Assembly: GCA_965215005.1 (NCBI GenBank)
Contig: CBDCCZ010000004.1
Span: forward strand, 317,115-381,114
DNA from: Kofleriaceae bacterium
GTDB lineage: Bacteria > Myxococcota_A > Polyangia > Haliangiales > Haliangiaceae
Direction: 5' to 3'
DNA: 64,000 nucleotides
Shown in pieces: positions 19,250 to 43,705 of this stretch. The position numbers and the translations under genes are program-made. The first letter of the stretch is position 1. Each line of letters opens with the position of its first letter. The notes beneath the pieces are model-generated. The model saw only the letters and a list, made by a program, of their open reading frames with translations. It was not told the DNA's origin and did not search any database.

Positions 19250-19275
19250 GGCCAGCACTCCTTTCTCTTCCAACC

Positions 19276-20221: not shown

Positions 20222-20559
20222 TGCTTCGAATGGTCCTTCTTCGTCGTTTGCTCGAGTCTCTAGTGGAGCTCGAGCGTTGCGGCCGCGGAATCTACGCAGG
20301 CGCGATATCCGATGCAAGCGTAAAAAGGCGGCAAACAACGATCAGCCGAGCAGCGGTGTTCTGGCTCTCTATTCGGCCATTCTCCAGTGAGATCGTTGCT
20401 AGTTTCGAGCGCGGGACGCCGTCGTGAGCGACGGTTACGGCCGCGGCATTGCTACCTGTTACCTATAGGTTTGCCGACATACAGCTCGGCCTGACCGAGG
20501 TCGAAGGGGGCCGCGGACAACGATTCACGTCGACCCGCGGATGACGGTAGGGTGGGCCG

Positions 20560-24250: not shown

Positions 24251-26137
24251 TCAGGCCGGCTCGCGGCGACGCTTGAGCGTTTGCCGCAGCTGCATGAGCA
24301 AGTATCCAGCGCCCGAGCGGACGAACACGCCACCCAGATCAAGTTTGGTTTGCCGCGGTGCCATCAGCGAATCACTGAGATAAAGCTGACGACACGCGTT
24401 GCGTTGGCGCTTGCCGCTAGAGGTTTTGGGAATCGCGCCGGGTTCGGTGAGCACGACCTCTTCGAGGTTCACCCCGCACTCTCGTAGCACCGCCTCGGCG
24501 ACGCGAGCCGAAAGTGCCACTCGCTTGTCCGAGTCACTGATGCGCGTCTCGCACACGAGAACCACCAGGTCGCGCGCCTCGCGGTCATCATAGACTGCGA
24601 ACGCAACGGTGGCGCCGGCGCGGACGCCTTCCACGGTCTCGGCCGCACGCTCCAAATCTTCTGCATAGTAGTTGCGACCTTGCAGGATGATTAGATCCTT
24701 GGCGCGACCAGTGACGTAAAGCTGGCCATCCGACACGTAGCCCAAATCGCCAGTCCACAAGCTGCCCTCGCGAAGCACCTTAGCAGTGGCTTCCGCATCT
24801 CCCCAGTAGCCACGCATCACCGAGCGACCTGATACTACGACGTGGCCGACCTGGTTCTCGCTAAGTTCTCGACCGTGCTCATCCACCACCGCCAATCCTT
24901 GGCCGGGGACTGCGCGCCCGACGCTCACGAGCGTTAGCGCACCGGCGCCTTCTGCCGGCACGACGTGGCCATTGGCGAGCTGCTCGCGATCGACCGTTTG
25001 GTGGGCAATCCGGCGGTGCGGCTCGGGGAACGCCGCGGCCAAACTGACTTCTGCAAGACCGTACGCTGGCAGTATCGCCTCGGCGGAAAATCCATGCGGC
25101 GCGTACGTGGAGACAAACTGCTCAACGGTTGCCAGATTCACCGGCTCTGCACCGTTAGAGGCGACGCGCCAGCTCGACAGATCGAGCCCCTCACGCTGCT
25201 CGCGCGACACGCGCTTTACCGCCAACGCATACCCGAAGTTGGGCGCAGGCGATAGCGTGGCGCGGTAATCCGAAATCGCGCGCAGCCAGCGATGAGGTCG
25301 CGCCAAGAATGCCGTGGGAGACATGAGCACGAAGGGCAAACGCCAGTACACGGCGAATAGCAGCGCGCCGATGAGACCCATATCATGGTACAGCGGGCAC
25401 CAGCTCATCACCACATCGTTGCGCGAGACCTCTAGAGCCTGACCCATCGTGTGGATATTGGACACTAGGTTGTCGTGGGTCAGAGTCACGCCTTTGGGCT
25501 TGCCCGTGGAGCCAGAGGTGTATTGCAAGAACGCCGGCTCACTGGCGCTGGCGCGGAATTTTTCATCAAGCACGCTACTACGGGCGAGCTGAGCCGCCGT
25601 TACCACGCGAGTGATGCATGGCGCGCGAAGTCCCAAATCGCCGAGTAGACCGGATATATCGGCACAAGTGACGCAAACCGTTGCCTGCGAGTGGTTTGCG
25701 ATATGCGCGAGCTTGCGCAGCCCAGCCTCCAATCGTAGACCCGTTGGCGGGTACGCCGGAACTGGAATGGCTCTCAGCAGCTGGACGGCGAAAAAGGCTT
25801 CGACAAACTCAAAGGATGTTGGCAGCACGAGGAGCACGCGGTCACCGGCAGAGACTCCGAGCTCGCGAAGCCCGCGGGCGATGCGGCGAGCACCATGATA
25901 GAGCTCGCGATAGGATCGGGTCTGGGCTGGACGATTTTCGCGCTCCGGCAACAGCGTGATGCCGCGGTCCGCTTCTAGTCGTGCCGCTTCCGCGAACGCA
26001 TGCAACAGGGTTGGGTGATATGGCTCGAGCTCTGTTGGAAGCTCGGCTTTGCCGCTTGCCCACGCTCCGGTACGGAAGCCTGTTTGCTCGTGGCTCGGAA
26101 AGCTCGAGCGAAATTGTCGATTGAGGGACGGGTTCAT
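24251..26137 (-). CDS. Fatty acyl-AMP ligase (FAAL)
   Basis: 'AFLQYTSGSTGKPKGV', 'SWCPLYHDMGLIG', 'YGLAE', 'TGDLG', 'GRNYYAEDLE', 'PKTSSGK'. Co-operonic with an ACP. Confidence 0.92.
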   Translation of the reverse strand: MNPSLNRQFRSSFPSHEQTGFRTGAWASGKAELPTELEPYHPTLLHAFAEAARLEADRGITLLPERENRPAQTRSYRELYHGARRIARGLRELGVSAGDRVLLVLPTSFEFVEAFFAVQLLRAIPVPAYPPTGLRLEAGLRKLAHIANHSQATVCVTCADISGLLGDLGLRAPCITRVVTAAQLARSSVLDEKFRASASEPAFLQYTSGSTGKPKGVTLTHDNLVSNIHTMGQALEVSRNDVVMSWCPLYHDMGLIGALLFAVYWRLPFVLMSPTAFLARPHRWLRAISDYRATLSPAPNFGYALAVKRVSREQREGLDLSSWRVASNGAEPVNLATVEQFVSTYAPHGFSAEAILPAYGLAEVSLAAAFPEPHRRIAHQTVDREQLANGHVVPAEGAGALTLVSVGRAVPGQGLAVVDEHGRELSENQVGHVVVSGRSVMRGYWGDAEATAKVLREGSLWTGDLGYVSDGQLYVTGRAKDLIILQGRNYYAEDLERAAETVEGVRAGATVAFAVYDDREARDLVVLVCETRISDSDKRVALSARVAEAVLRECGVNLEEVVLTEPGAIPKTSSGKRQRNACRQLYLSDSLMAPRQTKLDLGGVFVRSGAGYLLMQLRQTLKRRREPA

Positions 26138-28833
26138 CAGGCTCTGTTCTCCTCGATAATGAAGCCATGCATCCGTGCTAAGTCGCGTGCCCGGCGCACT
26201 TGCAGCGCCCGAAGTGGGCCATACGAGAAGTTCTCTCGAAGTCCCGCCAACCCGAGCAGCACCGTCTCGGCCAAGCAGCCATAGAGCTCGCCCGGACGTA
26301 GCGACAGCTCCTCGAGATCAACTGTTTGTCCGAGCGGCGCGCGCACCATGCCGCCTTTGAGCACCACGGCATTAGGACGCTCGTGGCTTACTTGCGGCGC
26401 CACGTCTCTTGGCACCGCGACATCGGAAATGATGACCGTGCCGGTGCCGACGTGCTCGGGCAACACCACGGGTTCCGCGGCATTGGTGGCAGAGACGATG
26501 ATGTTGCAGTCGCGCAGCGCCCCCATGTCAGTTGCAATCTCGATTTTCGGCCTGCCGGCGTCGCGAGCGATGGCGTCGCGGGTGCGTTCCAGCCGGCGCT
26601 GCGCACGCGGCTGCCCGACCAGCACCAGCTCGTCCACCGCCTCGGCAGCGACCTCCGCCAACACCGCGCCAATGTTGCCAGCGGCGCCAACCACGCCCAG
26701 CCGCAACTGGCGCAGGTCGCGGCGTTTTGCCGCCAACAGTGCCGCCTCGAGTGCCGAGGCGGCGGTGAGCGAGTTGCCGCTGGTGATGCCGATGTCGGAG
26801 GCGACCACCGCTCGGCAGTTGTTAGTGAGGATTGACGTGTAGCCGCCAAAGCCGACGGCGGAGCAGCCAAGGCGCCGCGCATACGCTACGCCGCGATGGA
26901 TGAGATCGAGGATGACGTCGCCGTTGCCCTGCCGGAGCCCCAGAAGGGCCTGCTCTGGGGTGAACGCAAGTCCCAGCACGGTCACCGTCACGCGATTGCC
27001 GAGGGCTGATTCGATCTCGCTTTGGCCGACGACGAATGGCTCGATGGCGCCGGTGGTGCGTCCCAAGAACTGCGCGCACTCGTTGTCGCTGAAGTCGCCC
27101 AGGGTCGGGTCCCAGGAGCGAAGGGTGCCTGGCTCGAGAAAGTGCGCGAGAAAGCCTACGTGCGCCTGGCCCGGTCGACTCGGACGGGCGGCGCGTTTAG
27201 GCGGGGCACTCGGAGCGGGTTTGCTCCGCGTCGAACGCGCGTTGCCCACTAAATAGCGACTGAGCAGGCTGGCATCAGAGCATCGGAGCGCCTCGCAGGC
27301 GCGCTCGAGGGCAGCGCAGAAACGATCGAGCGCGGCCTCTTCGATGAAGGCGGAAGGTTGCAGTCGAAGCGTGGCACCCGCTGATAGCGTGGGCAGCACG
27401 CGAATGCGTTCTTCATGAAGGAAGTACCCAGCAAGAAATTGTCCCAAGCGATCCTGCTCACCGAGCACACGCAACAACGGGCTGCGGGAATCCTGCTGCG
27501 CACCGAGCTCGATGCCGAGCATCAGCCCACGGCCGCGAACCTCGACGATTTGGTCTGGGTAGCGGCGCTGCAACTCCTCGAGGCGACGGCGCAAATATTC
27601 GCCCTTGACGCGGCACTTGAGCAAGACCTCGTCGCCCTCCAGTACATCGAGTGTGGCATTGGCCACCGCCGCCGAAAAATGATCTTCGGCGTAGGTTGAC
27701 GTATGGACGTAGCCGAAGTGCGGCTGGTAGCGCTCTCGATCGACGAGTAATACGGCAATCTTTGCGAGGCCGCCGCTGAGCGTCTTTGCAAGGGTGTAGT
27801 AGTCACCGCGAACGCCCGCGGCCTCGGAAGCTAAGAACGTGCCCGTTCGACCCATGCCAGACTGTATTTCATCGATGATCAACGGGAACTCCGCAGCGTC
27901 GGCGGCGGCGCGCAGCGCTCGCAGGTACGCTGCCGGCACTTCTCGAACCCCGCCTTCCCCTTGAATTGGCTCTACGAAGCAGGCAGCGATGTTGACCACA
28001 TGCCCGGTGGTCAGCCGCGCCACGCCGTGGTCGTCGAGCTCGAGCATCGGATACGCGAGCGTCTCTGTCGCCACCACCTGCGCCAGCGTTGACTCGTCGC
28101 CAACCGGCAAGAACAACACCCGCGGCCCCAGGTGCTGCCAGGCGGTTCGCATTTGCGGATTGTGGGTGAGCTGCAAGGCGCCGAGGGTCTTGCCGTGAAA
28201 CGCGCCTTCTAGGGCGAGCAGCAGCGGGCGTTGCTCGAGCGCATCGAGGATCGCTCGCGAGAGCCGGAGCATGAGCTCATCGAGAGTGTGAATGGCCTCG
28301 ACACCGAACCGCCGGGCGGCGTCGCGAAACAAATCCTCCGGCAGCACTGCCGTCTGTTCCCGTAGCCGTAGCCGCAGCTCATGGTGGCGACGCTCGAGCT
28401 CGTCTTGCACTGCCTGCCAACGGAGCCGGCGCTCGAGCTCGGCGTGCTTGATCGCTGCCTCGATAGCTTCGGCGCCGGAGTTGGTGAACGTCGCAACATA
28501 CTCGCGGTTGGTGACGCTACCCAGCCGCGCGGCTAAGCGTTCGGCCAGTACGCCAGCCTCGCCGCGGGCACTGCCCTGCGCCAGGAACGGCCGTTGCTCG
28601 TCCAGGACCCGCCGTGCAGCGGCGACCAGTGTTGGATGATTATGACCGAGAAGGGTGGCGCCAAATCCACCCACGAGATCGAGCACCGCGACCTCGCTGC
28701 CATCGGCTTGGCGAAAGTAGAGCGTGTCGCCTTCGCCACGCTCATATTCGAAATCGAGCGCGAGTGCCCGGAGCCGCTGCATGAGGGTTGGCTTGACGAA
28801 CTGCTCGTAAGCCGCACGACGCTCGCTGCTCAT
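26137..28833 (-). CDS. Class-III aminotransferase fused to a C-terminal acyl-ACP-reductase-like domain
   Basis: PLP domain: 'NSGAEA', 'EPIQGEGG', 'DEIQSGMGRTG', 'LAKTLSGG'. Reductase domain: 'GFGGYTSI', 'ITSGNSLTA', Rossmann 'GVVGAAGNIG', 'DVAVPRDV', 'YGCLAETVLL'. Confidence 0.88.
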   Translation of the reverse strand: MSSERRAAYEQFVKPTLMQRLRALALDFEYERGEGDTLYFRQADGSEVAVLDLVGGFGATLLGHNHPTLVAAARRVLDEQRPFLAQGSARGEAGVLAERLAARLGSVTNREYVATFTNSGAEAIEAAIKHAELERRLRWQAVQDELERRHHELRLRLREQTAVLPEDLFRDAARRFGVEAIHTLDELMLRLSRAILDALEQRPLLLALEGAFHGKTLGALQLTHNPQMRTAWQHLGPRVLFLPVGDESTLAQVVATETLAYPMLELDDHGVARLTTGHVVNIAACFVEPIQGEGGVREVPAAYLRALRAAADAAEFPLIIDEIQSGMGRTGTFLASEAAGVRGDYYTLAKTLSGGLAKIAVLLVDRERYQPHFGYVHTSTYAEDHFSAAVANATLDVLEGDEVLLKCRVKGEYLRRRLEELQRRYPDQIVEVRGRGLMLGIELGAQQDSRSPLLRVLGEQDRLGQFLAGYFLHEERIRVLPTLSAGATLRLQPSAFIEEAALDRFCAALERACEALRCSDASLLSRYLVGNARSTRSKPAPSAPPKRAARPSRPGQAHVGFLAHFLEPGTLRSWDPTLGDFSDNECAQFLGRTTGAIEPFVVGQSEIESALGNRVTVTVLGLAFTPEQALLGLRQGNGDVILDLIHRGVAYARRLGCSAVGFGGYTSILTNNCRAVVASDIGITSGNSLTAASALEAALLAAKRRDLRQLRLGVVGAAGNIGAVLAEVAAEAVDELVLVGQPRAQRRLERTRDAIARDAGRPKIEIATDMGALRDCNIIVSATNAAEPVVLPEHVGTGTVIISDVAVPRDVAPQVSHERPNAVVLKGGMVRAPLGQTVDLEELSLRPGELYGCLAETVLLGLAGLRENFSYGPLRALQVRRARDLARMHGFIIEENRA

Positions 28834-29078
28834 CGAGCATCCCGCTTTGCATCCACCAGCGCGGCGAGGTCCCGAACGGTAACCACTTTCGCTAACGCTG
28901 GATCATGCTCGCTGATTTCGATGTCAAACTGGCCTTCCATCGCCAAGATGAGATCCAGCGAGCGAACTGAGTCGAGGCCATAGCCAAGGAGGTTGCCGTC
29001 ATCGCGGATCACCTCGCGCTCGACTCCGCACACGGTGGCAAGCTCGCATTTGACGGCTGTGAGTACTTCATCAGACAT
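28830..29078 (-). CDS. Acyl carrier protein (82 aa)
   Basis: Acidic small protein with a 'GLDSV' phosphopantetheine site. GGAG RBS before ATG 29078. Confidence 0.9.
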   Translation of the reverse strand: MSDEVLTAVKCELATVCGVEREVIRDDGNLLGYGLDSVRSLDLILAMEGQFDIEISEHDPALAKVVTVRDLAALVDAKRDAR

Positions 29079-29107
29079 GCTCAACTCCATTGGCGAATGC
29101 GCATCAA

Positions 29108-29741
29108 TCACAGGTTTTTTCGTATGGAAGCAAGGCGAAGTGCAGCGTTGATCACGAGGTGCAGCACCGTGAGCGTGAGCGTGCCCGCGACTGCAATGGT
29201 CCAGGAATAGCCAAAGGCTAACGCACCGAGAAAAAGGGCGGCGATGACGCTGTCGGCTTGATCGAGAACAAAAAAACCAGCTCCTGCCACTCCAGCGCCC
29301 CGCTTGCCGGGAATGATGTCGATGCGGCGCCTTGAGAAACGAATTGGGTAGCTCGCCCAGTGCGTAGCCAAGGCCAAAGATCGTGTTGACTATCGCGTAG
29401 CCCACAGCGAAGGACGTCCAGCCTTCGGGGGCGCGAAAGGCGCTACCCACCGCCGAGTACGCGATCAGCTCGAGCCCTGCGCTGGCGGCCCATGCGCCGC
29501 CGACGGCACCTTGCACGAATCCGACAGCAGCGCTGCCGACGATCATGAAGCACACGCCACGCCACGTCTTGTTGTCGCCGAAGATTCGCTTGCCGCGAAA
29601 GCTCCGGCCGCCGTCGAGCGGTAGCTTGAAGGCCGGGAACAAGTCGAGCTTGACCACGACCATATGCAAGATGCCGGTCAACGCGACGGCACTGGCGAGC
29701 CAGAAGACGGGTCCACTAAAGGCGATAGCTAAGAAATTCAT
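29108..29741 (-). CDS. CDP-archaeol synthase-like (CarS/DUF46) membrane cytidylyltransferase; +1 frameshift near 29330
   Basis: 'PLDGGRSFRGKRIFGDNKTWRG' and 'LGELPNSFLK|RRIDIIPG...LDQADS' after removing one G. Multiple TM helices. Confidence 0.82.
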
Positions 29742-29755
29742 CGTACATTCCCTCG

Positions 29756-30748
29756 ATGATCGATTGTCACGCGCATGCATTCCCTCGTCTGGATGAGTTG
29801 GTTTCTCGAGTTCCTGGCTCTGCAGCGGCCGTGGCTGCCTCGCTGGTGCGTGGTGGCAGCGGCGCGGTCACCGCGGTCGGCAAAATGCTTCGGAACGTGG
29901 TGCCTCGCGATGAGCGGCCGCCGGCGCTGGGCATCGAGCGAGTCGCGGCAATGCGCCAAGCTCGCTCCGACAAAGCCAATCGAGTCATCGAAGGCACGCT
30001 GGCTACCGTGGCTGCACCGGCTATGCTCGCCACCGGTGGCGTTTCGCAGCTGCTTGCCTCCATGGAGCGGCATCAGCTCGCGGCGACGGTACTGATCGGC
30101 GCGCCTCCCATCGCGAGCAACGCCTGGCTTCTCACCGAGGCGGCTCGATGCTCGCCGCGCTTGATTCCGGTGACCACCATGCCCGAGCTCGACCCCGCAG
30201 CGAACGCCAACGCGTGGCAGGCGGCATTCGAGAAGCTCGCAGCGGAAGGCGCACAGGGCTTCAAGATCCACCTCAACATGGATGGGCTGTCGCCGCAGCA
30301 TCACGCGTACCGGAGCCTCTTTAAAGTGGCCAGCGACCGCGACTGCTTCGTCATCGTTCACACCGGTTGCTTTCATGTGCCCTCGTATCACCGCCACGGA
30401 CCGATCGAGCCCGGTGAGCTCGAGCCGCTGCTTCGCGAATTTCCCGACGTACGGGTGTGTTTGGCGCACATGAATCGCGAGCGGCCGGAAGCGGCTTGGG
30501 AGGTCATGGAACGCCATTCTCAGGTCTTTACGGACACCAGCTGGCAACCGGCGAGCGTCATACGTCAAGCAGTCGATCGGGTCGGCATCGACCGCGTCTT
30601 GCTCGGCTCCGACTGGCCGCTGCTTCACGCAGACCTGCAAGGTGACGCACTGCAGGTGTTGCGGAAGGCGGTATCGGCTGAGGAGGTCGAGCAGATTGGT
30701 CATGGCAATGCGAAGCGTTTTCTCGGTCGGGCGCTCGTCTCCGAGTGA
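29756..30748 (+). CDS. Amidohydrolase family protein (Amidohydro_2)
   Basis: 'IDCHAH', 'GFKIH', 'VHTG', 'LAHM', 'DTSW', 'LLGSDWP', 'GNAKRFL'. Confidence 0.88.
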   Translation: MIDCHAHAFPRLDELVSRVPGSAAAVAASLVRGGSGAVTAVGKMLRNVVPRDERPPALGIERVAAMRQARSDKANRVIEGTLATVAAPAMLATGGVSQLLASMERHQLAATVLIGAPPIASNAWLLTEAARCSPRLIPVTTMPELDPAANANAWQAAFEKLAAEGAQGFKIHLNMDGLSPQHHAYRSLFKVASDRDCFVIVHTGCFHVPSYHRHGPIEPGELEPLLREFPDVRVCLAHMNRERPEAAWEVMERHSQVFTDTSWQPASVIRQAVDRVGIDRVLLGSDWPLLHADLQGDALQVLRKAVSAEEVEQIGHGNAKRFLGRALVSE

Positions 30749-31132
30749 CCCTCCGCTAGCCGGCGCGCGAGCCTCAATGCACCCAGCTGACGACGAGCAC
30801 CAGTAGCGCCGCCAGAATCATCCACGAGCCGAGCGCCGGCCAACGGCGCGCTCGAGTCATCGTTCCCACCGCCGTCCATTCCCCATTCACGTTTCGATAC
30901 TTCACTGTCATTGCGAGCCACCAAGGTTGCACTCGCTATGCCACGGGCAAATGCCGTAGCGGCGTTGCTCGAGCCCGCTTTGCCGCGCAACTCGGGTGGC
31001 TAGTGTAGCCACCGCGAGGGCGGTCATGAACCGAGGTGGCGGGCTCGATGGGCCCGTTTAGGGCGGTTCGCTGCTTGCACTGCGTCGCGCTGCCCAAGTT
31101 ATTCAGTTCCTAACAAAGGAAGTTACTGCATC

Positions 31133-31939
31133 ATGCGACACGTAAATTTCACCGCCGCAGGCACCTTTGCGCTTGCCTTGCTTTCGCTGCCTCTACTTGC
31201 ATCGGCGGACAAAGGCAGCAAGCGCACAAGCGGCAATGAGAGCGCGGACGCCATCGTCGAGCGGATGCTCGACATCGACCCGCTGACGTATGGCGGCGCC
31301 GAAGCCAACGTCCAGATGATCCTCGTCAACGGCCGCAATCAACAGCGGAGCCGCGACGTCGTGATGTTGAGCCGCAAGGATGGCGATGAGCGGCGCACCT
31401 TTATTCGCTTTCGCTCGCCCAGCGACGTGGCCGGGACAGCGTTTCTCGGACTGGATGACGATGGCGATCGCGTCCAGCACCTGTTTCTGCCGGCGCTCGG
31501 CAAGACCCGTCGGATCTCGACCAAGCAACGCAACGCCAGCTTCGTTGGCAGCGACTATACCTACGCCGATCTCGACAATCGCGATATCGATGACTCGAAG
31601 CGGAAACGCCTCCCAGACGAGACGTTGAGCGGCAAGGACTGCTACGTCATCGAGCTCGAGCCGACCTCGAAGGAGAGCGAGTATGAAACGATCAAACTGT
31701 GGCTCGCAAAAGAGAGTTACTTGCCGCTCGCCATTCGTTACTTCGATGGCAAAGGCAAGGAGATGAAGCGCTTCGTCGTGACGTCGGCGAAGAAGCACGA
31801 CGGTCGCTGGGTCATCGAACAATCGAAGATGGTGGATCTCCGGAAGAACCATGCAACGGGAATGAAGCTCACCGCGATCCGCTTCCGCAGCGACATCTCC
31901 CGCGATCAGTTCACGATCCAGGCGCTCGAGCGCGAGTAG
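31133..31939 (+). CDS. Periplasmic LolA-like outer-membrane lipoprotein-sorting protein
   Basis: Signal peptide; 'FRSPSDVAGTAFL', 'LFLPALGKTRRIS', 'FVGSDYTYADL'. Confidence 0.85.
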   Translation: MRHVNFTAAGTFALALLSLPLLASADKGSKRTSGNESADAIVERMLDIDPLTYGGAEANVQMILVNGRNQQRSRDVVMLSRKDGDERRTFIRFRSPSDVAGTAFLGLDDDGDRVQHLFLPALGKTRRISTKQRNASFVGSDYTYADLDNRDIDDSKRKRLPDETLSGKDCYVIELEPTSKESEYETIKLWLAKESYLPLAIRYFDGKGKEMKRFVVTSAKKHDGRWVIEQSKMVDLRKNHATGMKLTAIRFRSDISRDQFTIQALERE

Positions 31940-31942
31940 TCG

Positions 31943-33643
31943 ATGCGTTGGTTTACGGTCGTGGTGTTGATCTGCGCTGGGCGTACGGCGCTAGCGCAGA
32001 CGGCCTCCGCCACTCCCCCCGCGGCCAATGAAACGCTGACTCCGGCGGTCGTCGAGCGCGGCGCGGCGCGGCGCTCGGCAGGGCGTCTGGCGGCCGAGCC
32101 CGCCATCACGGCTGACGATGCGAGCTCAGCGCCAGACGAGGGCGGCGATAGCTTCACGATGAGCGCGGGCCTTGACGATGTCGGGCCGCAGCTGGAGCTC
32201 GACTCGGCGCCGATCGTGACTCTTGATGAGCCGGCGGTTGAGAAAAATCCGGGAATCGAGATGTCCGCGCTGCTTTACGCTCGCGCGGGCACCGACCTCG
32301 TTCATCAGCCCGGCGCCGCCAGTGGTTCCACCTCGGTTCCCATCGGCGAGGACGTGCTGTCGTTTCGCGGTCACGCTCGCGCCGAGGCCACGAGCCGATA
32401 CCAGCGAATGCTCAAGCTCAAGTTGTCGGGCCGGCTAGACGCCGAGTGGGGCATGGACGCCGACTCGCGTTTGGACGTCGAGCGCTACGAAGCACGTCTG
32501 GGTGAGACCTATGTCGACTATTTTGGCTCGGGCCTCAGCGCCCGTGCAGGCAATCAAGTCATCGTTTGGGGCACCGCAGAGCTCATTACTCCCAACGATG
32601 TCGTCAATCCGCGCGACCTGCGGCGAGGCTTTCTCGAGCGCGCTGACGAGCTGCGCCAGCCTGTCGTCGCTCTCGAGGTGAGCGGCTTTCACGGTCCCGC
32701 GTATCTCACTGGAGTGTGGGTTCCGGTTCCCGCCAGTCATCGAATGGAGCTTCTAAACAGTGATTTCGCGTTGCTTGGACCCAGCGCCCCGAGGCTCGAG
32801 CGGTCAATAGGTACGGCGCTCCAGCGGCTGAAGGCCGATCCGGAGCTCGGGCCCGCGCTGGCTCCAATGCTCGAGCTCGATGGCAGCTCCTCGTTTGGCA
32901 TTCAAGATAGTGAATTGGGTGCTAGTGCCGGCTTTCATTTTCGTCATCTAGATCTACTTTCGTACTTCTTTTGGGGGCATGAACGGAGCCCGCGCATCGT
33001 GATCGCCGAGGAGCTCGCGACGATGCTCGCTACAGCGCCCGCGGAAGCCCTCACGCCAGAGCAACTGGCCGATGCGGTTGGAGCGCTCGCGAGGCAAGGT
33101 GTGGTGGCGGTCGCGAGCGATTATCCGCGGCGCGTCCACACGGGAGGTGCCTTGGCGACTCGCCTCGAGCCAATTGGCATCAAGCTCGATGTTGGCTACA
33201 CGTTTGGTGCGACGGCGCCGCTGACTCGCGAAGGCGGCGGTTTGCTGGCGGCCGAGTCGCGCCAGCTCGACCGAGCGAGCGGCACGGTGTCGCTCGACTA
33301 TCAGCGCGGCGCATTCATGGTGGTGGCGGAAGGAAACGTCACGCGAGTGCTCGGCGTTCCGGCCGGCGCGGACGTGTATCAGATGCACGGCGCAAGCGCG
33401 TATCTCGCCGCCGCGCGAATCGACTGGCGGCCAGCGGCGAGCGCTATCTCGATGAGCCTGCTTTCGTTCGTTGATGTCGCGACCACGCCATCGTACGCGG
33501 TGCGACCGGCGATTCGCTTCTCCGGTCACGACCACATCTCGCTAGAGGCGGCCGCCATTCTCTATGAAGGCCCTCCAGACACGCTGGCAGGCGCCGCCGA
33601 CCGCAATGACGAAGTGGTCTTGACGGTGGAGCTCGGCCTCTAA
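31943..33643 (+). CDS. Putative outer-membrane beta-barrel (DUF1302-like)
   Basis: Signal peptide; 'ETYVDY...RAGNQVIVWG...DVVNPRDL'; amphipathic strands; 3 nt downstream of the LolA-like gene. Confidence 0.65.
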   Translation: MRWFTVVVLICAGRTALAQTASATPPAANETLTPAVVERGAARRSAGRLAAEPAITADDASSAPDEGGDSFTMSAGLDDVGPQLELDSAPIVTLDEPAVEKNPGIEMSALLYARAGTDLVHQPGAASGSTSVPIGEDVLSFRGHARAEATSRYQRMLKLKLSGRLDAEWGMDADSRLDVERYEARLGETYVDYFGSGLSARAGNQVIVWGTAELITPNDVVNPRDLRRGFLERADELRQPVVALEVSGFHGPAYLTGVWVPVPASHRMELLNSDFALLGPSAPRLERSIGTALQRLKADPELGPALAPMLELDGSSSFGIQDSELGASAGFHFRHLDLLSYFFWGHERSPRIVIAEELATMLATAPAEALTPEQLADAVGALARQGVVAVASDYPRRVHTGGALATRLEPIGIKLDVGYTFGATAPLTREGGGLLAAESRQLDRASGTVSLDYQRGAFMVVAEGNVTRVLGVPAGADVYQMHGASAYLAAARIDWRPAASAISMSLLSFVDVATTPSYAVRPAIRFSGHDHISLEAAAILYEGPPDTLAGAADRNDEVVLTVELGL

Positions 33644-33667
33644 AGCACGAGCTCCACTGGCGTCGCG

Positions 33668-34636
33668 CTAGAGCCCGAGATTCAAAGTCAGGCCGCGGTC
33701 GATGATATAGGCGACCGGAACCGCGAACGAAATCGCCATCGTGATGAGCTCGCTCACGGGGCGCAGCTCGGCACGAGCCGGCGTTGGTGCCGCCAGAAAC
33801 TGGGCGGCGCGGCCAATCGCGAGGCAGCCGACGACGATGGTGATTCCGGCGCCAAGCCAGCCAAACCCGGCGCGCATCAGCGTCCATGCGACACAACCCG
33901 TGGCCACAGTCCAGAACAGGATGACCATGGCGGTCGCAACTCGCCATCCAACGATCTTCGAGTACGTCGTGTAGTCGGTCTCCTGCTCCGGCAAGCGAAT
34001 CTTCCGCGACCACTCCCATGCTGCTAACGGCATCCAAAGGCCGATGAGGAGCACGAGAATATCCACTACGGCCGCATCGCGGGTGAAGTCGGCTTGGAAC
34101 AGAACCAACGCGTATACGAGCATGACCGCAACGAGCGGATTATGCGTGATGAACGCTAACAGCAAGTTGCGCTGCATCGGTGGATAGAAGAACCAGCGAA
34201 ATGATGCGTAGGTAAGACCAAAGCAGACCAGAAACGCCACGAAGGCGCTGCTCGGGAAGAGCGGTAGGTTGATCGCGAAGAGCAGCGCAGTCGTTAGCCA
34301 TCGCAGCCAAACGATATCCTCGACACGGACCTCTCCGGTCACGATCGGTCTGTCCGCGTAGCGCGGGTCTCCGGCACGTCCAAGCCGCAGGTCTGTCTCG
34401 ACGTCTTTGAGCTCGTCATAGACGCGCAGCAGTAGCGAGAGCAGGACGAACGTGACTGCACCGATAACCGAGCGGGTGGTGAGCGAAATCGGCGCGTATC
34501 CAGCGAGCGCTTGTAGCGACCCGTAGAAGGCGGCGAAGTACATCAGGAACGCAGGCACCATTAGCACCGGCGGGAACATGTACTGGAGGTATCGGGCTAT
34601 ACGAATGAATCGTGATCGACTGGCTGGTTTGTTCAT
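33668..34636 (-). CDS. UbiA-superfamily prenyltransferase
   Basis: Asp-rich 'RVYDELKDVETD', 'RPIVTG', about 8-9 TM helices. Confidence 0.85.
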   Translation of the reverse strand: MNKPASRSRFIRIARYLQYMFPPVLMVPAFLMYFAAFYGSLQALAGYAPISLTTRSVIGAVTFVLLSLLLRVYDELKDVETDLRLGRAGDPRYADRPIVTGEVRVEDIVWLRWLTTALLFAINLPLFPSSAFVAFLVCFGLTYASFRWFFYPPMQRNLLLAFITHNPLVAVMLVYALVLFQADFTRDAAVVDILVLLIGLWMPLAAWEWSRKIRLPEQETDYTTYSKIVGWRVATAMVILFWTVATGCVAWTLMRAGFGWLGAGITIVVGCLAIGRAAQFLAAPTPARAELRPVSELITMAISFAVPVAYIIDRGLTLNLGL

Positions 34637-34895: not shown

Positions 34896-37634
34896 ATGAG
34901 AGATCTTGCAAAGCTGAGCACGATTTGTCTTCTCGATGAGGATGAGCTCGCCGGCGCCCCGGAGTCGCTGGTAGGCGGCAAGGCGCGTCAGCTCGGGGCT
35001 TTGGTGGCGCGTGGGGCGCGAGTTCCCGAGCTCTTCTGCGTGCCTACTCCAGTCTTTGACGCGCTCGTCGCCAAGGTTGGTCAGCCAGTCTCGGAGCTGC
35101 TCGCAACGGCGCGAGCAAGCGAGCCCCAAACCGTTGTCGCCGCGAGCTCGGCAGCCCGTCGGGCCATTCAGTCGCTGGCGCTCGACGCAATCGATCAGAC
35201 CGCTATCCTGCATCGGTTCGATTCGCGATTTCCCAAAGGCTCGCGGGTTGCGGTGCGGTCGTCGGCGGTCGGCGAAGACTCTGCAAGCGACTCCTTCGCC
35301 GGCCAACTCGACACCTTTCTTCACGTTCCGCGCGCCGAGCTGTGCCGCGCCATCGTCGACTGCTTTGCTTCGGCGTTTACGGAGCGGGCGTTGATGTATC
35401 GACTGCTGCGCGGGCATGGCGCGCAGGCTCGGGTGGCGGTTGTGGTCCAGTGCATGGTGGAAGCACGCGCCGCCGGTGTGATTTTTACCGCCAACCCGAC
35501 CACCGGCGATCGCTCAGAGGCGGTGATCTCCGCGGCGCTCGGGCTTGGCGAGGGCGTGGTAGACGGCACCGTCGAGACCGACACCTTTTATGCAGAGCTT
35601 GCTACCGGACGAATCCGCCGAAGCGAGCTTGCTTGCAAGCAGACGCGGGTGGTGTTTGATGACGCATCGGGCAGTGGAACCGCATTTGCGGAGGTTGCCG
35701 CGCCTGAGCAGAACGAAGCCGCCATTGACGAGGCGCAGCTTCAGACACTGGTGTTGCATGCTGCGGCGCTCGCTGACCAGCAAGGTTCTCCTCAAGATAT
35801 TGAATGGGCGCTAGATCAGCAGGGCACGCTATACCTATTGCAGTCTCGCCCCATCACGACCTTGCCGGCTGCCGATGCGCACGTCTCGGTCTTCGACAAT
35901 GCCAATATCGTCGAGAGTCATCCGGGGTTGACGCTGCCGCTCACGTTCTCCTTTGTTCGTCGCGGCTACGAGAAAACTTTTCGCGAGGCGCAGCGATGTT
36001 TTGGCGTCTCCGAGGAAGTTCTGCGCCAGAACCGCGATCTGCACGAGAACCTCGTCGCGATGATCGACGGGCGCATGTATTACAACTTGCGCAACTGGTA
36101 TCGAATCTACGAGATCATGCCGGGCTTTGCGTGGGCGCTTCCCGCCTGGGAAGAAGCGCTGGGGCTCGATGCGCTCGGGCAGAAGACCGAGCCGCTGCAG
36201 CTGTCGCATCACCTGCGCCGCGTGCCGGCGTATGGCGAGCTGGCGGTGAGGCTCATGATGCTGATGCGAGGCTTGGAGCGCCAAGTTGGCCATTACTTGC
36301 GCCGCCTCGACCGCGTGCAGCAAGCGGTGACCGAGAAGGAGCTCGACGCGTTGAGCATTCACGAGCTGGTTGCACTGCTCGATGACGTCACCGAGGAACT
36401 GACGGCACCGTACGCCATCGCCGTAGTCAACGACTTCTTTACGCAGCAGCTTTACGGTCTCGTCAAAGCGCTCATCGTGCGTTGGCAGCTGGGCGAGCCT
36501 GAAACACTGCGCAATGAGCTGCTATGCGGCGAGCACGGCGTTGATAGCGTTGCGCCGGTGCGGTCATTGGTGGCTTTGTCGCAGTGGATTGCTGCTTCAC
36601 CGGCGGCGCTGGCGCTATTTCAAAGCGCTGCCTCTCATGACGAGGTGTGGCGCCAGCTCATCAGCCGGCCCGAGCACGCGGTGCTCTACGCCGCGCTCAC
36701 CGAGCACATCGCGAAGTACGGCGACCGCGTGTTGCACGAGCTGAAGCTCGATAGCCCACTCATCGAAGAACAGCCGGGTTTCCTCGTGCAGATGCTGCGC
36801 AACTACCTGGCGACCGAGCAGTGCGTCGAGGAAATGGAGGCGCGCGAGCGGACCATCCGCAATCGCGCTGAGGCCCACGTGCGCGAGCGGCTCCGGCGCT
36901 CGCCCATTCGTCGACGCATCTTCTTTGAAGTCTTGGCGCGCGCGCGTGCCGGAGTGCGCTTTCGCGAGAACCTGCGGCTCGCGCGCAGCCGCAGTTACGG
37001 TCTGGCCAAGCGCATGTTCAGAGCTCTTGGCCGGCAGTTCGTTCATGCAGATCTTCTCGACGACTCTGCTGAGCTCTTGTATCTCACCGTGGAAGAAGCC
37101 ATCGATGCCGTGCGCGGCGCCTCGGTGACTGACAACTTGCGCAACTTGGTCGAGCTGCGCCGCGAGGAATATGCGGTGCTCGCAACGCGCTCCGCACCCG
37201 CCGACCGAATCCTTCGGCGCGGCGCGGTATTGGCGCGCGCCGACGTGCAGCTCGATACGGCGATCGAGCCCGCTGCCGGCGACGACGACCTCCTTCGCGG
37301 GACCGGCTGCAGCTCGGGTCGGGTTCGCGCGCCTGCGAAGATCTTGCTCGAGCCGAGTGGCGATCTCTCGGTGCGCGGTGAGATCCTCGTTGCTCCCATG
37401 ACCGATCCGGGATGGGTGTTCCTGATGGTGAGTGCCGGCGGTCTGGTGGCCGAGAAAGGCAGCGTCCTCTCCCATACTGCCATCATTGGTCGCGAGCTCG
37501 GCATCCCCACCATCGTGGGTGTGAAGGGGGCTACCAGCCGTATTCAGCCAGGCGATGAGATCGAGCTCGACGGCAGAACGGGCGAGGTGCGCATCCATCG
37601 CCCAAGCGCTGTCGAGGTCAACGATGCTGCGTAG
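34896..37634 (+). CDS. PEP-utilising enzyme (RPH/PigC architecture) #2
   Basis: 'VGGKA', 'VAVRSSAVGEDSASDSFAGQ', 'DIEWA...LQSRPIT', 'TDPGWVFLM...GSVLSHTAIIGRELGIP'. Confidence 0.88.
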   Translation: MRDLAKLSTICLLDEDELAGAPESLVGGKARQLGALVARGARVPELFCVPTPVFDALVAKVGQPVSELLATARASEPQTVVAASSAARRAIQSLALDAIDQTAILHRFDSRFPKGSRVAVRSSAVGEDSASDSFAGQLDTFLHVPRAELCRAIVDCFASAFTERALMYRLLRGHGAQARVAVVVQCMVEARAAGVIFTANPTTGDRSEAVISAALGLGEGVVDGTVETDTFYAELATGRIRRSELACKQTRVVFDDASGSGTAFAEVAAPEQNEAAIDEAQLQTLVLHAAALADQQGSPQDIEWALDQQGTLYLLQSRPITTLPAADAHVSVFDNANIVESHPGLTLPLTFSFVRRGYEKTFREAQRCFGVSEEVLRQNRDLHENLVAMIDGRMYYNLRNWYRIYEIMPGFAWALPAWEEALGLDALGQKTEPLQLSHHLRRVPAYGELAVRLMMLMRGLERQVGHYLRRLDRVQQAVTEKELDALSIHELVALLDDVTEELTAPYAIAVVNDFFTQQLYGLVKALIVRWQLGEPETLRNELLCGEHGVDSVAPVRSLVALSQWIAASPAALALFQSAASHDEVWRQLISRPEHAVLYAALTEHIAKYGDRVLHELKLDSPLIEEQPGFLVQMLRNYLATEQCVEEMEARERTIRNRAEAHVRERLRRSPIRRRIFFEVLARARAGVRFRENLRLARSRSYGLAKRMFRALGRQFVHADLLDDSAELLYLTVEEAIDAVRGASVTDNLRNLVELRREEYAVLATRSAPADRILRRGAVLARADVQLDTAIEPAAGDDDLLRGTGCSSGRVRAPAKILLEPSGDLSVRGEILVAPMTDPGWVFLMVSAGGLVAEKGSVLSHTAIIGRELGIPTIVGVKGATSRIQPGDEIELDGRTGEVRIHRPSAVEVNDAA

Positions 37635-37647
37635 CACCACCAGTGCC

Positions 37648-38763
37648 TCAATCCAGCTCTGCGCTCGAGCGCTCGTAGAGGGCGTAAGAGCGGCTGGGTG
37701 GGGCAAACGAGCCGAACAGCGGCCACTCCGCAGTGACCAGCGCGATGATTGTATCGCTAGCGCGATCAGTTGCCAGCGCGAGCTCGACCGCCCGTCTGAT
37801 CATGGCAGCGGCCAGTCCGGTGCGGCGAACCTCGGGAACGATCGCGATGGTGTGCAAGACCATGCGCGGAACTGCCGTGGTGGCGAGCCAGCTGCCCCAA
37901 GAGCTCGCGTCGCCAGCAAGCGCCTGAACCTCTTTGAAGTAATCGGGGAATGTCAGCACGCAGCCGACATCTTCGCCCGCGCTTTCGTCACGGGCGATTT
38001 GCACGTGTCCCGGGCGGGTCAGCGTGATGATTGGTGCATACGTCGGCAGGAACTCATCGGCCTCGAGCGTGGTGAAACCCACATGGCCGGCCCACATGCG
38101 CGTGAGCAGGGGATGGATGCGCACGAGGCTTTCAGCGGCCTCGTGAGGCCCCGGCGTGTCGATCCGGTAGTGACCTGGCAGATGTTTTTCTTGCGTTTGC
38201 AGATGCTCGCGCAGGGTTTGCCACTGCGCAGGGCTGGGCTCGTAGCTATGCCAGCAATGCTTGGCCTCGAACCCACAGGCGCGAAACAACGCCGGGTAAT
38301 AAGCAGGATTGCGCGGCTCGAACAGAAACGGCTTAGTTTCGAAGCCCTTGGTCATGAATCGATGCGCGCGGTGAGCTCCGCCATTGATGGGGCCCAGTAC
38401 CGAAAGTGCCCCTGCCGCTCTGAGATGAGCCAGCGCCGCTGCCAATACGCTCTTCGCGGCCGCTACATCGTCGATGCACGCAAAAAAGCCAATTTGACCA
38501 ATGATGGCACCGGTGGAGTCTCGCAGCCGGGGATTGACGATCGCTGCCGCATGGGCCACGGGCTCGCCACCTGCTTCGCACAGAAACCGCGTCGTGGTCG
38601 CGTAGCTGCCGAAGGAGTCGGTGCCGTCAAGGGCACGTTCGGTGGACTCCGCCAGCGGCGTCATCCAGCTCGGGTCGTGGTCGTGGAGGTGCCGAAGCAG
38701 GGTGAAATAGCTTTCTGTTGCGGTAGGCGCGACCCGGATTGTCTTCATTGAAGATGGACTCAT
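37648..38763 (-). CDS. GNAT-fold acyltransferase (YghO-like)
   Basis: 'GQIGFFACIDD', 'LGPINGG', 'NPAYYPALFRACGF', acyl-CoA motif 'IVPEVRRTGLA'. Confidence 0.75.
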   Translation of the reverse strand: MSPSSMKTIRVAPTATESYFTLLRHLHDHDPSWMTPLAESTERALDGTDSFGSYATTTRFLCEAGGEPVAHAAAIVNPRLRDSTGAIIGQIGFFACIDDVAAAKSVLAAALAHLRAAGALSVLGPINGGAHRAHRFMTKGFETKPFLFEPRNPAYYPALFRACGFEAKHCWHSYEPSPAQWQTLREHLQTQEKHLPGHYRIDTPGPHEAAESLVRIHPLLTRMWAGHVGFTTLEADEFLPTYAPIITLTRPGHVQIARDESAGEDVGCVLTFPDYFKEVQALAGDASSWGSWLATTAVPRMVLHTIAIVPEVRRTGLAAAMIRRAVELALATDRASDTIIALVTAEWPLFGSFAPPSRSYALYERSSAELD

Positions 38764-38866
38764 TTCGAATGGGCACTAAGCAAATGGCGCACTGGCTACC
38801 GGTGCGCACGCGGAGCGACCATGCTGGTTGCTCTATAGTCAACAACGCGACTCGCTTGGAGATTGT

Positions 38867-41335: not shown

Positions 41336-42473
41336 GCTTCCACTCGTCCTTCTGGAACGCCGGCCGCAACACGCCCTCGAAGCTGCGCGAATCGAGCTGC
41401 GTCATGCGGTCGAACAGCTCACTGTAGACGTTGATGGCGCGGCTGGTGAAAATGTGTAGAAAGCCCCCCGGCTTGGGGAGCTCCTCGCGCAGCCGCTGGT
41501 GCAGCTCGAGGCGAATCGAGTCCCACTGATCGGCGGGAACCATGGCGGTCACCATGGGATTGTGTTGGAACTTGGTGACCAGCTCATCGACCCGCCTATC
41601 AACGATGCCAAAGAGCGTTACACCGGCCTCGCCCTCCACCATCTTGGCGACCATGTTCTCGGGGTTGAGAATGTCGCGTGACACCATGGTGGCGAACTCT
41701 TTGGCAACGGCTTGCTGCCGCTTGTGAAACAGGCCGTGCAGCGTGAGTGGACCCAGCTTGATCGGATCCGCAGGCTCGAAAATCAGCTTGAGCGCCAGCC
41801 AGTTCGTTGCGTAGCCGACGAAGAATCCAAAGAACGGCAGCACCCACCACGCCGGATACGCAATCCATGCAAACAGCTGGACCACGCCAAACAGCAGCCC
41901 AAAGTAGGCCCCAGAGCGCTTGATGAACTTGAACTCCTCGACCCCAACGGTCTGGAACATGTCGCCGATGAGCTTGCGGTCGCGATGCGCGGCATCCACG
42001 ACCACGTGCTTGAGATTGACGATGTCCTCGATGACACAGCTCATGTCCGCGAGGATTTGCACCGTTACCTGCTCGACCTCGACGCGCAGGAGCACCCGAA
42101 TCTGCGCCCGTACCGGCTCGGGAAGCTGCGTCCACTTGTCTTTGCCGTACTTCCCGGCGGTTTCGGCAATGACCTGGTCAACCAGCTCCTCGATCGCGCC
42201 GTCGAGGTGACCGCTGAAGCCATGGGCATCGAAGCTCGCGAACAGCGCGCGTAAGTTGATGAGCTTATCGGTGATGAGGTCGGTCGACTTCGCCGCCAGG
42301 GCCTTGGCGTTGGCGGGAATGATCCCCTGCCAACCCAAAAACGGTCGCACGCCGAAGAAATCGACAGGATGAAACATCATCTGCACCGCGATGACGTTGG
42401 TTCCCCAGCCGATGATCGCTGAGAACAGCGGGATCAGCAGGTTGAGGGGGTCTGCAAATAGCCAGTCGATCAC
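41253..42473 (-). CDS. DUF445-family membrane protein
   Basis: Duplicated 'GWGTNVIAVQMMFHP' / 'GYATNWLALKLIFEP', 'GWQGIIP', 'RPAFQKDEWKLIVAGA'. Confidence 0.85.
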   Translation of the reverse strand: MIDWLFADPLNLLIPLFSAIIGWGTNVIAVQMMFHPVDFFGVRPFLGWQGIIPANAKALAAKSTDLITDKLINLRALFASFDAHGFSGHLDGAIEELVDQVIAETAGKYGKDKWTQLPEPVRAQIRVLLRVEVEQVTVQILADMSCVIEDIVNLKHVVVDAAHRDRKLIGDMFQTVGVEEFKFIKRSGAYFGLLFGVVQLFAWIAYPAWWVLPFFGFFVGYATNWLALKLIFEPADPIKLGPLTLHGLFHKRQQAVAKEFATMVSRDILNPENMVAKMVEGEAGVTLFGIVDRRVDELVTKFQHNPMVTAMVPADQWDSIRLELHQRLREELPKPGGFLHIFTSRAINVYSELFDRMTQLDSRSFEGVLRPAFQKDEWKLIVAGAALGLAAGVLQVVYLFGDQLRG

Positions 42474-43454: not shown

Positions 43455-43556
43455 TCGCGGATGGATACCACAACAGCTCGCAGGCGCGGTCGCCGCTCCT
43501 GCCTTCTCCGGCTGACCGTGCAACATCGTCTGCCGCGCGGGATCGCCACGCGCGGG

Positions 43557-43641: not shown

Positions 43642-43705
43642 CGCGCCCGCTCGCCCCGGCCGGCGCGCTGATGCGACCGCCGCGCAGGCAGCATCGAACA
43701 ACGCG

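Follow-up and report, generated by a model that had tools for sequence, protein, structure and literature searches.

The enzyme CarS counts as a hallmark of the synthesis of archaeal lipids. The passages of PMC9385802 that deal with this enzyme report it as archaeal and as preferring digeranylgeranylglyceryl phosphate (DGGGP) over phosphatidic acid, and the part of PMC7852524 concerned with metagenome-assembled genomes (MAGs) of FCB-group bacteria, candidates for archaeal-type lipids, reports that CarS was not detected in them. A second described system relevant here makes fatty amines: according to the pertinent passages of PMC9594044 and PMC8341465, TamH and PigE combine a transaminase with a thioester reductase and form amines from thioesters, and TamA together with TamH converts fatty acids to amines. 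Here we describe a gene cluster around a CarS-like gene of a Kofleriaceae bacterium (assembly GCA_965215005.1; genome G000, 6.2 Mb in 62 contigs, completeness 92.8%). The cluster lies in a high-GC stretch of 64,000 nucleotides (contig CBDCCZ010000004.1, here C4, positions 317115-381114; GC content about 63%) that was analysed as a whole and is called the window; positions given without a contig are those of the window.

A first-pass annotation had drawn attention to three genes of this window, encoding a CarS-like protein, a UbiA protein and a phosphatidylserine decarboxylase (Psd, at 20560). We found all three, and annotation with Pfam and NCBIfam places them in one cluster of about 23 kb (20560-43712), of which two dikinases, a fatty acyl-AMP ligase (FAAL), an acyl carrier protein (ACP), an aminotransferase-reductase, a GNAT protein, an MMPL protein and a PlsC-like protein had been missed. 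Gene order that is kept across phyla supports a functional link between the CarS-like, UbiA-like and Psd genes. More widely, homology and synteny show that the amine module, the CarS-like/PssA-like/Psd set, the dikinases, the N- and O-acyltransferases, the UbiA-fold transferase and the exporter belong together. On balance we favour the reading, drawn from sequence and gene order, that the cluster builds an undescribed phospholipid, activates it for head-group attachment and exports it, that its hydrophobic part would derive from a long-chain amine, and that the frameshift in the CarS-like gene is an assembly error. The genes of the cluster are:

20560-21456, plus strand: phosphatidylserine-decarboxylase-like gene (Psd), second of the genome (Pfam PS_Dcarbxylase, 160 bits)
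21559-24177, plus strand: dikinase no. 1, PPDK_N and PEP-utilizers domains, Rph/PigC/RedH-like (Pfam)
24251-26137, minus strand: FAAL (Pfam AMP-binding and DIP2-like C-domain)
26137-28833, minus strand: class III aminotransferase with acyl-ACP/thioester-reductase-like part, TamH/PigE-like (Pfam Aminotran_3 and Shikimate_DH-like NAD domain)
28830-29090, minus strand: ACP (Pfam PP-binding; ACP models in NCBIfam)
29108-29741, minus strand: predicted CarS-like CTP:lipid-phosphate cytidylyltransferase, frameshifted in the assembly (Pfam CarS-like)
29330-29331, minus strand: +1 frameshift within the CarS-like gene, an extra G after AAG (DNA sequence)
29756-30748, plus strand: Amidohydro_2-family protein, accessory member, divergent from the CarS operon (Pfam, 117 bits)
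31133-31939, plus strand: predicted LolA-like periplasmic lipid carrier (Pfam LolA_like, 181 bits)
31943-33643, plus strand: DUF1302-like predicted outer-membrane protein (Pfam DUF1302, 38.5 bits)
33668-34636, minus strand: divergent UbiA-fold intramembrane transferase (Pfam UbiA, 41.2 bits)
34896-37634, plus strand: dikinase no. 2, PPDK_N and PEP-utilizers domains (Pfam)
37648-38763, minus strand: predicted tandem-repeat GNAT N-acyltransferase (Pfam Acetyltransf_1)
38828-41335, plus strand: predicted MMPL/HAE3-type RND lipid exporter (Pfam MMPL, 125 bits)
41253-42473, minus strand: DUF445 membrane protein, cluster membership uncertain (Pfam DUF445, 53 bits)
42561-43712, minus strand: PlsC-like acyltransferase, probable member (Pfam Acyltransferase, 48.8 bits)

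The CarS-like, ACP, aminotransferase-reductase and FAAL genes form a tightly coupled operon, in which the ACP stop overlaps the aminotransferase-reductase start by 4 nt and the stop of the latter overlaps the FAAL start by 1 nt. The nuo genes come next after the PlsC-like gene.

Distribution of the cluster

A scan of one genome per species yielded 168 relatives of the CarS-like gene, and the best 80 loci, all from MAGs, were kept and searched with the proteins of the window (tblastn). A PPDK-like (dikinase) gene was present in 27 of these 80 loci and in none of the other 53. Matches to the remaining proteins were found for PssA-like (12 of the 80 loci), FAAL (10), GNAT (9), MMPL (9), Psd (8) and UbiA-like (8) genes, and all PssA-like, FAAL, GNAT, Psd and UbiA-like matches lay within the 27 loci that carry a PPDK-like gene; in the 53 loci without it, with a median length of 20 kb, tblastn gave no match to any of these five. 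Clustering of the open reading frames (ORFs) of 27 loci gave a similar picture: CarS in 27, PPDK in 26, PssA-like in 12, FAAL in 11, UbiA-like in 10 (and weakly in 8 more), GNAT and the aminotransferase-reductase in 10 each, and MMPL and Psd in 9 each.

The set recurs around the closest CarS-like relatives, which come from MAGs of Myxococcota, Planctomycetota and Acidobacteriota and from one alphaproteobacterium. In locus L020, from a Niveispirillum MAG, a single strand carries the genes for the aminotransferase-reductase, PPDK, GNAT, UbiA, a further PPDK, Psd, CarS, the PssA-like protein and a further UbiA, in this order. In Planctomycetes the cluster further contains genes for a fatty-acid desaturase, a methyltransferase, a protein with weak similarity to UbiA and a PlsC-family acyltransferase; for the desaturase, methyltransferase and PlsC-like genes, NCBIfam models offered no informative name. 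In a quick tree of the CarS-like proteins, from which L054, L058 and L065 were left out for short or broken matches, the dikinase-linked sequences group together (7 label changes; shuffles gave 22.5, and none of 500 was as low), and the phyla are intermixed within this group. Upon annotation, CarS-like loci of more remote relationship (Gammaproteobacteria, Actinomycetota and others) showed no common context, their neighbours being unrelated, with the exception of a Patescibacteria locus where a CDP-OH_P_transf gene adjoins CarS.

An interrupted CarS-like gene

The motifs reported for the CarS-like gene by the first-pass annotation (GDNKTWRG, NSFLKRR and LDQADS) are indeed all encoded on the minus strand, in two frames. 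The ORF at 28830-29780 begins as a CarS-like protein with GDNKTWRG, loses its frame after ...GELPNSFLK and ends as the ACP, and a second frame (29108-29377) holds RRIDIIPGK...LDQADS, so that NSFLK|RR is split by one surplus G past the AAG codon at 29330. When AAGG is read as one step, a conceptual protein of 210 amino acids (P0001) results, which matches the Pfam CarS-like model (PF01864) with 45.1 bits (cut-off 22, model positions 30-163 of 175), whereas the unbroken-frame fragment of the deposited assembly reaches only 23.5 bits. P0001 aligns over 96% with intact homologs of about 200 amino acids, with identities reaching 68% (1895 matches at E<=0.001), and K137 and R138, which flank the break, are invariant in a 12-sequence alignment.

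The profile of the family (alignment A1) matches the structure of ApCarS (5GUF, E 4e-8). GDNKTWRG, NSFLKRRL and LDQAD align with GDGKTIEG, GSFVKRRL and LDQLD of that enzyme, the common elements, putative CTP/metal-site motifs, being GDxKT, SFxKRR and LDQxD. Against the CarS equivalog model NF003114 (CDP-2,3-bis-(O-geranylgeranyl)-sn-glycerol synthase) P0001 scores 65.1 bits, below the cut-off of 148, and its L020 homolog 79.2 bits.

The frameshift is present in the deposited sequence, as the first-pass annotation had stated, and probably does not mark a true pseudogene. Of the words sampled from 28900-29900, 83% occur in the public run X1. Two of its contigs match the region, one spanning 28900-29346 and the other 29476-29900, with 29347-29475 left uncovered. 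The former (9322 nt, depth 4.4) agrees with 28900-29346 without substitution, but has one letter fewer at 29330. The parts of the gene on both sides of the break are 60-64% identical to the L002 ortholog and contain no further stops. Since, in addition, the other genes of the cluster are intact, an assembly error is probably the better explanation of the frameshift.

Broken cluster genes also occur elsewhere. The C-terminus of the L010 CarS-like gene shows a frame change (L010:10349-10557), and in L054 (7475-8446, 10001-10559 and 11476-14048) there is an in-frame stop in the UbiA-like gene and the CarS, dikinase and GNAT genes are split; errors of the MAGs or decay are the likely causes. A CarS-aminotransferase fusion ORF that seemed to be present in L009 was rejected as a high-GC read-through artefact, the CarS match and the long ORF being in different frames.

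A predicted fatty-amine module and two dikinases

The operon's FAAL, ACP and two-domain aminotransferase-reductase together form a module resembling TamA/TamH. FAAL matches the fatty acyl-AMP ligase model NF006624 with 458 bits (cut-off 600), and the ACP has an LDSV site for phosphopantetheine attachment. In the aminotransferase-reductase, Aminotran_3 (residues 29-512) is followed by a Shikimate_DH-like NAD domain (residues 703-817), and a GAAGNIG Rossmann motif is present. The protein scores 350 bits against the PigE equivalog (cut-off 850), which makes it an architectural analogue and not an ortholog; its best match in the PDB is CrmG (5DDS, E 2e-86), followed by PigE (4PPM), and the C-domain of its L020 counterpart matches the long-chain acyl-ACP reductase model TIGR04058 (E 2.7e-10).

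Dikinase no. 1 matches the RedH, Rph and PEP-synthase subfamilies of NCBIfam with about 380-413 bits, all under the cut-offs, and is closest in the PDB to rifampin-phosphotransferase-type structures (5HV1/5FBS, E 3e-82). Dikinase no. 2, which likewise resembles proteins of the rifampin-phosphotransferase type, has a full-length match to NF004881 (697 bits, cut-off 883). The phospho-His motif of the swivel domain reads GGVLSHAAV in no. 1 and GSVLSHTAI in no. 2. Relatives of no. 2 usually adjoin the CarS-like or UbiA-like gene, and no. 1 adjoins the aminotransferase-reductase in L020, L048 and L067.

A divergent UbiA-fold transferase

The UbiA gene of the first-pass annotation was also recovered: the ORF at 33668-34636 contains YDELKDVETD and exceeds the Pfam cut-off for UbiA (PF01040, 41.2 bits versus 34.2). 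UbiA superfamily motifs take the forms NDxxDxxxD and DxxxD; here the first acidic motif is DxxxDxxxD (D74/D78/D82), with altered spacing. Invariant positions of the family alignment (A2) are D74, E75, K77, D78 and D82, and further W207, E208, R211, K212, R214, E219, Y222, T224, Y225 and S226.

Grouping with quinone or haem prenyltransferases, which the first-pass annotation had considered, was not observed. The only NCBIfam match at E<=0.001 was NF010118 (103 bits, under its cut-off of 443), and no curated quinone, haem or DGGGPS model of that collection was matched. An AF2 model of the protein (pLDDT 90.7) found DGGGPS (7BPU/6M31) and ApUbiA (4OD4) as the best structures in Foldseek (TM 0.6-0.7, 13-16% identity, probability 1.00), DGGGPS ranking about level with ApUbiA and a PRTase, and searches of the PDB sequences, with the single sequence and with a profile, gave no match, DGGGPS included. 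Judged by its sequence, the protein is neither a quinone or haem prenyltransferase nor a DGGGPS. Its family comprises 159 matches at E<=1e-10, which are metagenomic, and no name of a cultured organism occurs among the 120 matches listed; looking up cluster members likewise yielded none.

Three other UbiA-family genes, all scoring more strongly than that of the cluster, are found in the genome. The strongest (183 bits; C60:130795-132739, in L090/L083) is followed on its strand, some 0.7 kb downstream, by a CDP-alcohol phosphatidyltransferase gene; here, for a second time in this genome, a UbiA gene is paired with a head-group enzyme.

Head-group enzymes

The cluster's Psd (PF02666, 160 bits) keeps the FGGST site for pyruvoyl self-cleavage and scores 287 bits against NF001941, under the equivalog cut-off of 371. 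As the genome retains a normal CdsA elsewhere and a second Psd on C26, the cluster is additional to, and does not replace, housekeeping phospholipid synthesis.

The first-pass annotation had stated correctly that the window contains neither a GGGPS nor a CDP-alcohol phosphotransferase gene: none of the nine CDP-OH_P_transf (PF01066) genes of the genome lies inside it. The statement was incomplete, as a PssA-like gene (C4:302044-302727, PF01066, 48.3 bits) is located 14.4 kb before the first base of the window. This gene scores best on archaetidylserine synthase/PssA models (NF038087, 99.5 bits, cut-off 240; TIGR00473, 71.7 bits, cut-off 107) and shares 41-56% identity with genes that 11 relatives carry in their CarS loci; in L003 and L054 these adjoin CarS upstream, and in L031 they lie beside Psd. 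In the reciprocal comparison, which left out the ninth PF01066 paralog, on C54, the relatives' PssA-like genes gave C4:302044-302727 as best match with 141-163 bits versus 43-62 bits for the next best paralog. The genome-wide search that the first-pass annotation had proposed thus identified an ortholog of the PssA-like genes on the contig of the cluster and, with the 12 related loci that contain one, bears out its suggested order of CarS, serine synthase and decarboxylase. The intervening 35 kb or so between the PssA-like and Psd genes consists of defence and mobile genes (listed below). The simplest reading is that a defence island was inserted into or beside the cluster and parted the PssA-like gene from the rest.

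The search for GGGPS proposed alongside it had the opposite outcome: nowhere in the genome, which is 92.8% complete, was PcrB/GGGPS matched, and Pfam detected no isoprenoid-synthesis gene (prenyl synthase or geranylgeranyl reductase) in the cluster. A G1PDH-like protein of 528 amino acids is encoded on another contig (C18:207889-209475, L105:1093-2679; best model NF002022, 158 bits, cut-off 413), and homologs were found in 4 of 30 relatives (G006, G012, G013 and G014), none of which has a CarS-like gene; three of the four have in-frame TGA codons inside the match. PF13685 proved unspecific, matching 13 of 14 control genomes. We rejected the G1PDH-like protein as a connection to an archaeal backbone, since in the relatives it and the cluster are not found together. 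The absence of GGGPS, this lack of co-occurrence and the absence of isoprenoid-synthesis genes from the cluster make an archaeal-type diether lipid unlikely. Of the hybrid prenyl-ether or prenyl-amine lipid suggested by the first-pass annotation, the non-standard amine backbone is plausible in view of the FAAL, ACP and aminotransferase-reductase; the archaeal-type isoprenoid glycerol ether part found no support.

Acylation, export and accessory genes

The AF2 model of the GNAT protein (pLDDT 80) matches tandem GNATs in Foldseek (7Q3A, 2WPW, 5KF1 and MshD), while its sequence gave only a chance-level match in the PDB. The PlsC-like protein has HRSFFD and PEGTRG motifs. It has no tblastn ortholog in the related loci; a PlsC-family gene is present in 6 Planctomycetes versions of the cluster, one of which weakly matches OlsA models. 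The MMPL protein matches TIGR00921 and HpnN-like models under their cut-offs. LolA-like genes also occur in L003, L007 and L054, and DUF1302 is weakly matched in L003 and L054. For DUF445 no ortholog was found in the related loci.

The predicted starts of the CarS-like operon and of the Amidohydro_2 gene diverge with only about 14 bp between them (29741-29756), and one of them may be miscalled. This head-to-head arrangement is also seen in L007, the only other locus with Amidohydro_2 as divergent neighbour of CarS.

What the cluster may produce

Every enzyme has a family assignment and intact catalytic motifs, which together with the tight operon and the synteny suggest the following phospholipid route. 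FAAL, ACP and the aminotransferase-reductase would convert a fatty acid via acyl-ACP and the aldehyde to a primary amine. A hydroxyl on the lipid core would receive a phosphate from one dikinase, by the chemistry of Rph or glucan, water dikinase. From this lipid phosphate and CTP the CarS-like enzyme would form a CDP-lipid, to which serine would be joined by the PssA-like transferase, and decarboxylation by the cluster's Psd would leave an ethanolamine head group. More tentatively, amide- or ester-linked acyl groups could come from the tandem GNAT and the PlsC-like protein, and one more group on the core, of alkyl, prenyl or phosphoribosyl type, from the UbiA-like protein. The other dikinase, perhaps no. 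1, whose counterpart lies beside the aminotransferase-reductase in several relatives, may couple the amine in a PigC/TamQ-like way, and transport of the product to the outer membrane would fall to the MMPL, LolA-like and DUF1302 proteins. A bolder version, possible but doubtful in our view, is that the cluster encodes a horizontally spread pathway for a glycerol-phosphate-independent phospholipid, with a fatty-amine-derived core that the new UbiA clade would alkylate or prenylate, that a lipid, water dikinase would phosphorylate, and that would gain serine and ethanolamine heads via the archaeal-type CarS-like enzyme.

Several observations weigh against the phospholipid reading that we favour. 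The case is built from homology and gene neighbourhood in MAGs, which are interrelated and possibly misassembled. A plain fatty amine has no hydroxyl to phosphorylate, and the link between amine and core is undefined. The dikinases score equally as PigC/RedH ligases, Rph and PEP synthases, and could be kinases or ligases. The CarS-like superfamily also includes CTP-dependent lipid kinases, and the UbiA-like protein has no recognisable second DxxxD, showing an invariant WE..RK.R....E..Y.TYS at that site. In this genome the PssA-like gene is about 35 kb away from Psd and the deposited CarS-like gene carries the frameshift, and the X1 evidence that contradicts it is thin (depth 4.4, the site lying 16 nt from the contig end) and may stem from the source sample itself. 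Finally, a CarS-like match was found in only 5 of 31 related genomes (this one counted), from which we conclude that the cluster is accessory and probably moves horizontally.

Of the other explanations, the one nearest to the first-pass annotation is a mixed-membrane bacterium that makes an archaeal-type isoprenoid glycerol ether lipid, with the UbiA-like protein as DGGGPS analogue and a CDP-archaeol-like intermediate that would then gain serine and be decarboxylated. The motifs in common with ApCarS, the DGGGPS structures 7BPU and 6M31 as best matches of the UbiA-like model, the preference of the PssA-like protein for archaetidylserine synthase models and the G1PDH-like gene on C18 (158 bits, NF002022) all agree with it. 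We nevertheless give it only a very slim chance, considering that PcrB/GGGPS is missing from a genome that is 92.8% complete, that the UbiA-like protein is 13-16% identical to DGGGPS, about level with ApUbiA and the PRTase, and matches no DGGGPS sequence model, that the G1PDH-like gene is under the cut-off and confined in the relatives to 4 without a CarS-like gene, and that the cluster has FAAL, ACP and acyltransferases in place of prenyl synthase and geranylgeranyl reductase. Loss of function of the CarS-like gene, leaving a real pseudogene in a cluster that is decaying or works without CDP activation, is improbable too. The extra base of the deposited assembly does sit in the most conserved motif, the PssA-like gene is parted from the rest by the 35-kb defence/IS island, and the CarS-like genes of L010 and L054 are also broken; yet the X1 contig is free of the extra base, the two halves remain 60-64% identical to the L002 ortholog with no more stops, the remaining cluster genes are intact with their catalytic motifs, and single-base indels are common errors of MAG assembly.

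Two further explanations accept the amine module and assign the other genes differently. If the product were an alkylamine secondary metabolite of the tambjamine/prodiginine type, the dikinases would act as condensing enzymes in the manner of PigC and TamQ, with the phospholipid genes as bystanders or as helpers in resistance or export. The parallel of FAAL, ACP, the transaminase-reductase and the PigC/RedH-like proteins to TamA, TamH and TamQ, and a patchy, phylum-crossing distribution as in accessory clusters, fit such a product, but pyrrole- or bipyrrole-forming genes are absent from the cluster, the CarS-like, PssA-like and Psd genes co-vary with the set across phyla, and the PigC/RedH scores (381-413 bits versus cut-offs of 1300-1350) are no better than those with Rph or PEP-synthase models, so that we regard it as quite unlikely. 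A kinase route, in which no CDP-lipid is formed, seems rather unlikely to us. It takes the CarS-like protein for a CTP-dependent kinase of lipid alcohols and a dikinase for the source of the second phosphate, and the UbiA-like protein would transfer the alkyl or prenyl group of the diphosphate to an acceptor such as the fatty amine; the model is the plant series of phytol kinase, phytyl-phosphate kinase and a UbiA-type transferase. UbiA enzymes need diphosphate donors, the CarS-like, dikinase no. 2 and UbiA-like genes are consecutive in the Planctomycetes loci and L020, and the UbiA-like protein and the amine would both gain a direct role. Yet a serine-type CDP-alcohol phosphatidyltransferase accompanies the CarS-like gene in 12 loci and a Psd does so in 8-9, as a producer of CDP-lipid needs, the CarS-like family keeps all motifs of ApCarS, a cytidylyltransferase, and known dikinases put one phosphate on a hydroxyl, so that phosphorylation of a phosphate ester would be new.

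Literature searches, with subscription journals outside their scope, returned no description of this gene set. The families are known, but neither their combination nor the CarS-like and UbiA-like clades have been described. What emerges is a distinct bacterial CarS-like clade with its own serine synthase, decarboxylase, phosphotransferases, UbiA clade and fatty-amine module, spread over four or more phyla of uncultured bacteria. Should the phospholipid reading that we favour be true, the cluster would make an unknown class of lipid, possibly a source of orphan environmental aminolipids or phospholipids, by way of new activities (a lipid dikinase and a CarS with a substrate other than archaeol), and would offer a concrete, testable case of head-group machinery crossing the lipid divide. 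Were the glycerol-phosphate-independent version true, it would represent a third way of assembling a membrane phospholipid, besides the bacterial and the archaeal one. The locus also illustrates an apparent pseudogene that is probably an assembly artefact and a biosynthetic cluster split by a defence island.

Other genes of the window

The defence island begins before the window and extends within it over 300-18421. Its genes include a NERD-protein kinase, BrxA/BrxB/BrxC and Fic/DOC, as well as two HTH genes; the parts located by Pfam are:

C4:303200-317114 (L098:6093-19999): part of the island before the window
300-2594: PglZ
2706-5004: IS66 transposase genes, apparently interrupting the BREX set
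5396-7435: BrxL
7445-10494: SIR2 and HerA
11617-14556: second PglZ-like gene and BrxC/D pair
16343-18421: Lhr-like DEAD helicase

Between the helicase and Psd (18659-20390) lie three overlapping ORFs of 160-216 amino acids, none of which matches Pfam or NCBIfam or has a counterpart in the related loci. On the other side of the cluster, AT skew is strongly negative (-0.22 to -0.27) at 46001-52000, across nuoL/M/N-like genes for membrane subunits, and the NuoL-like ORF at 46629-48932 has a weak C-terminal match to a PKD domain.

Comparison with known systems

The cluster shares its three head-group enzyme families, and their logical order, with the archaeal pathway of CarS, archaetidylserine synthase and decarboxylase. 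It differs in its bacterial host, in the absence of GGGPS and of a DGGGPS recognisable by sequence and in a CarS-like protein that scores under the equivalog cut-off. Moreover, the archaeal pathway inherits its phosphate from glycerol phosphate, whereas the core made by the cluster is probably derived from a fatty acid or amine and its phosphate probably installed by a dikinase. With TamA/TamH and PigE the cluster has in common an adenylating enzyme, a carrier protein, a fused class III transaminase-reductase and a PPDK_N/PEP-utilizers enzyme nearby; unlike those systems it contains no bipyrrole genes, its reductase part is acyl-ACP-reductase/PigE-like, and the module stands amid genes for phospholipid head groups and export.

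In ornithine-lipid synthesis, OlsB and OlsA are an N-acyltransferase and a PlsC-like O-acyltransferase. The cluster likewise pairs a GNAT-fold N-acyltransferase with a PlsC-family acyltransferase, although its GNAT protein is of the tandem-repeat type. The MMPL, LolA-like and DUF1302 families are all common to the MMPL/HpnN-type lipid exporters with their partners, to which the cluster's exporter is related at scores under the HpnN cut-offs. The UbiA-like protein has the nine-helix fold and the first acidic motif of the UbiA superfamily (DGGGPS, UbiA, MenA, haem O synthase and DPPR synthase), and is set apart by its motif spacing, its second motif and the lack of a sequence match to solved members. 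Rph-type and glucan, water dikinase enzymes phosphorylate hydroxyl groups, and to our knowledge no membrane-lipid substrate has been described for this family. The dikinases of the cluster have its ATP-grasp and swivel-His architecture, but their central substrate domain is unrelated to that of any characterised member, and their proposed substrate would be a membrane lipid.

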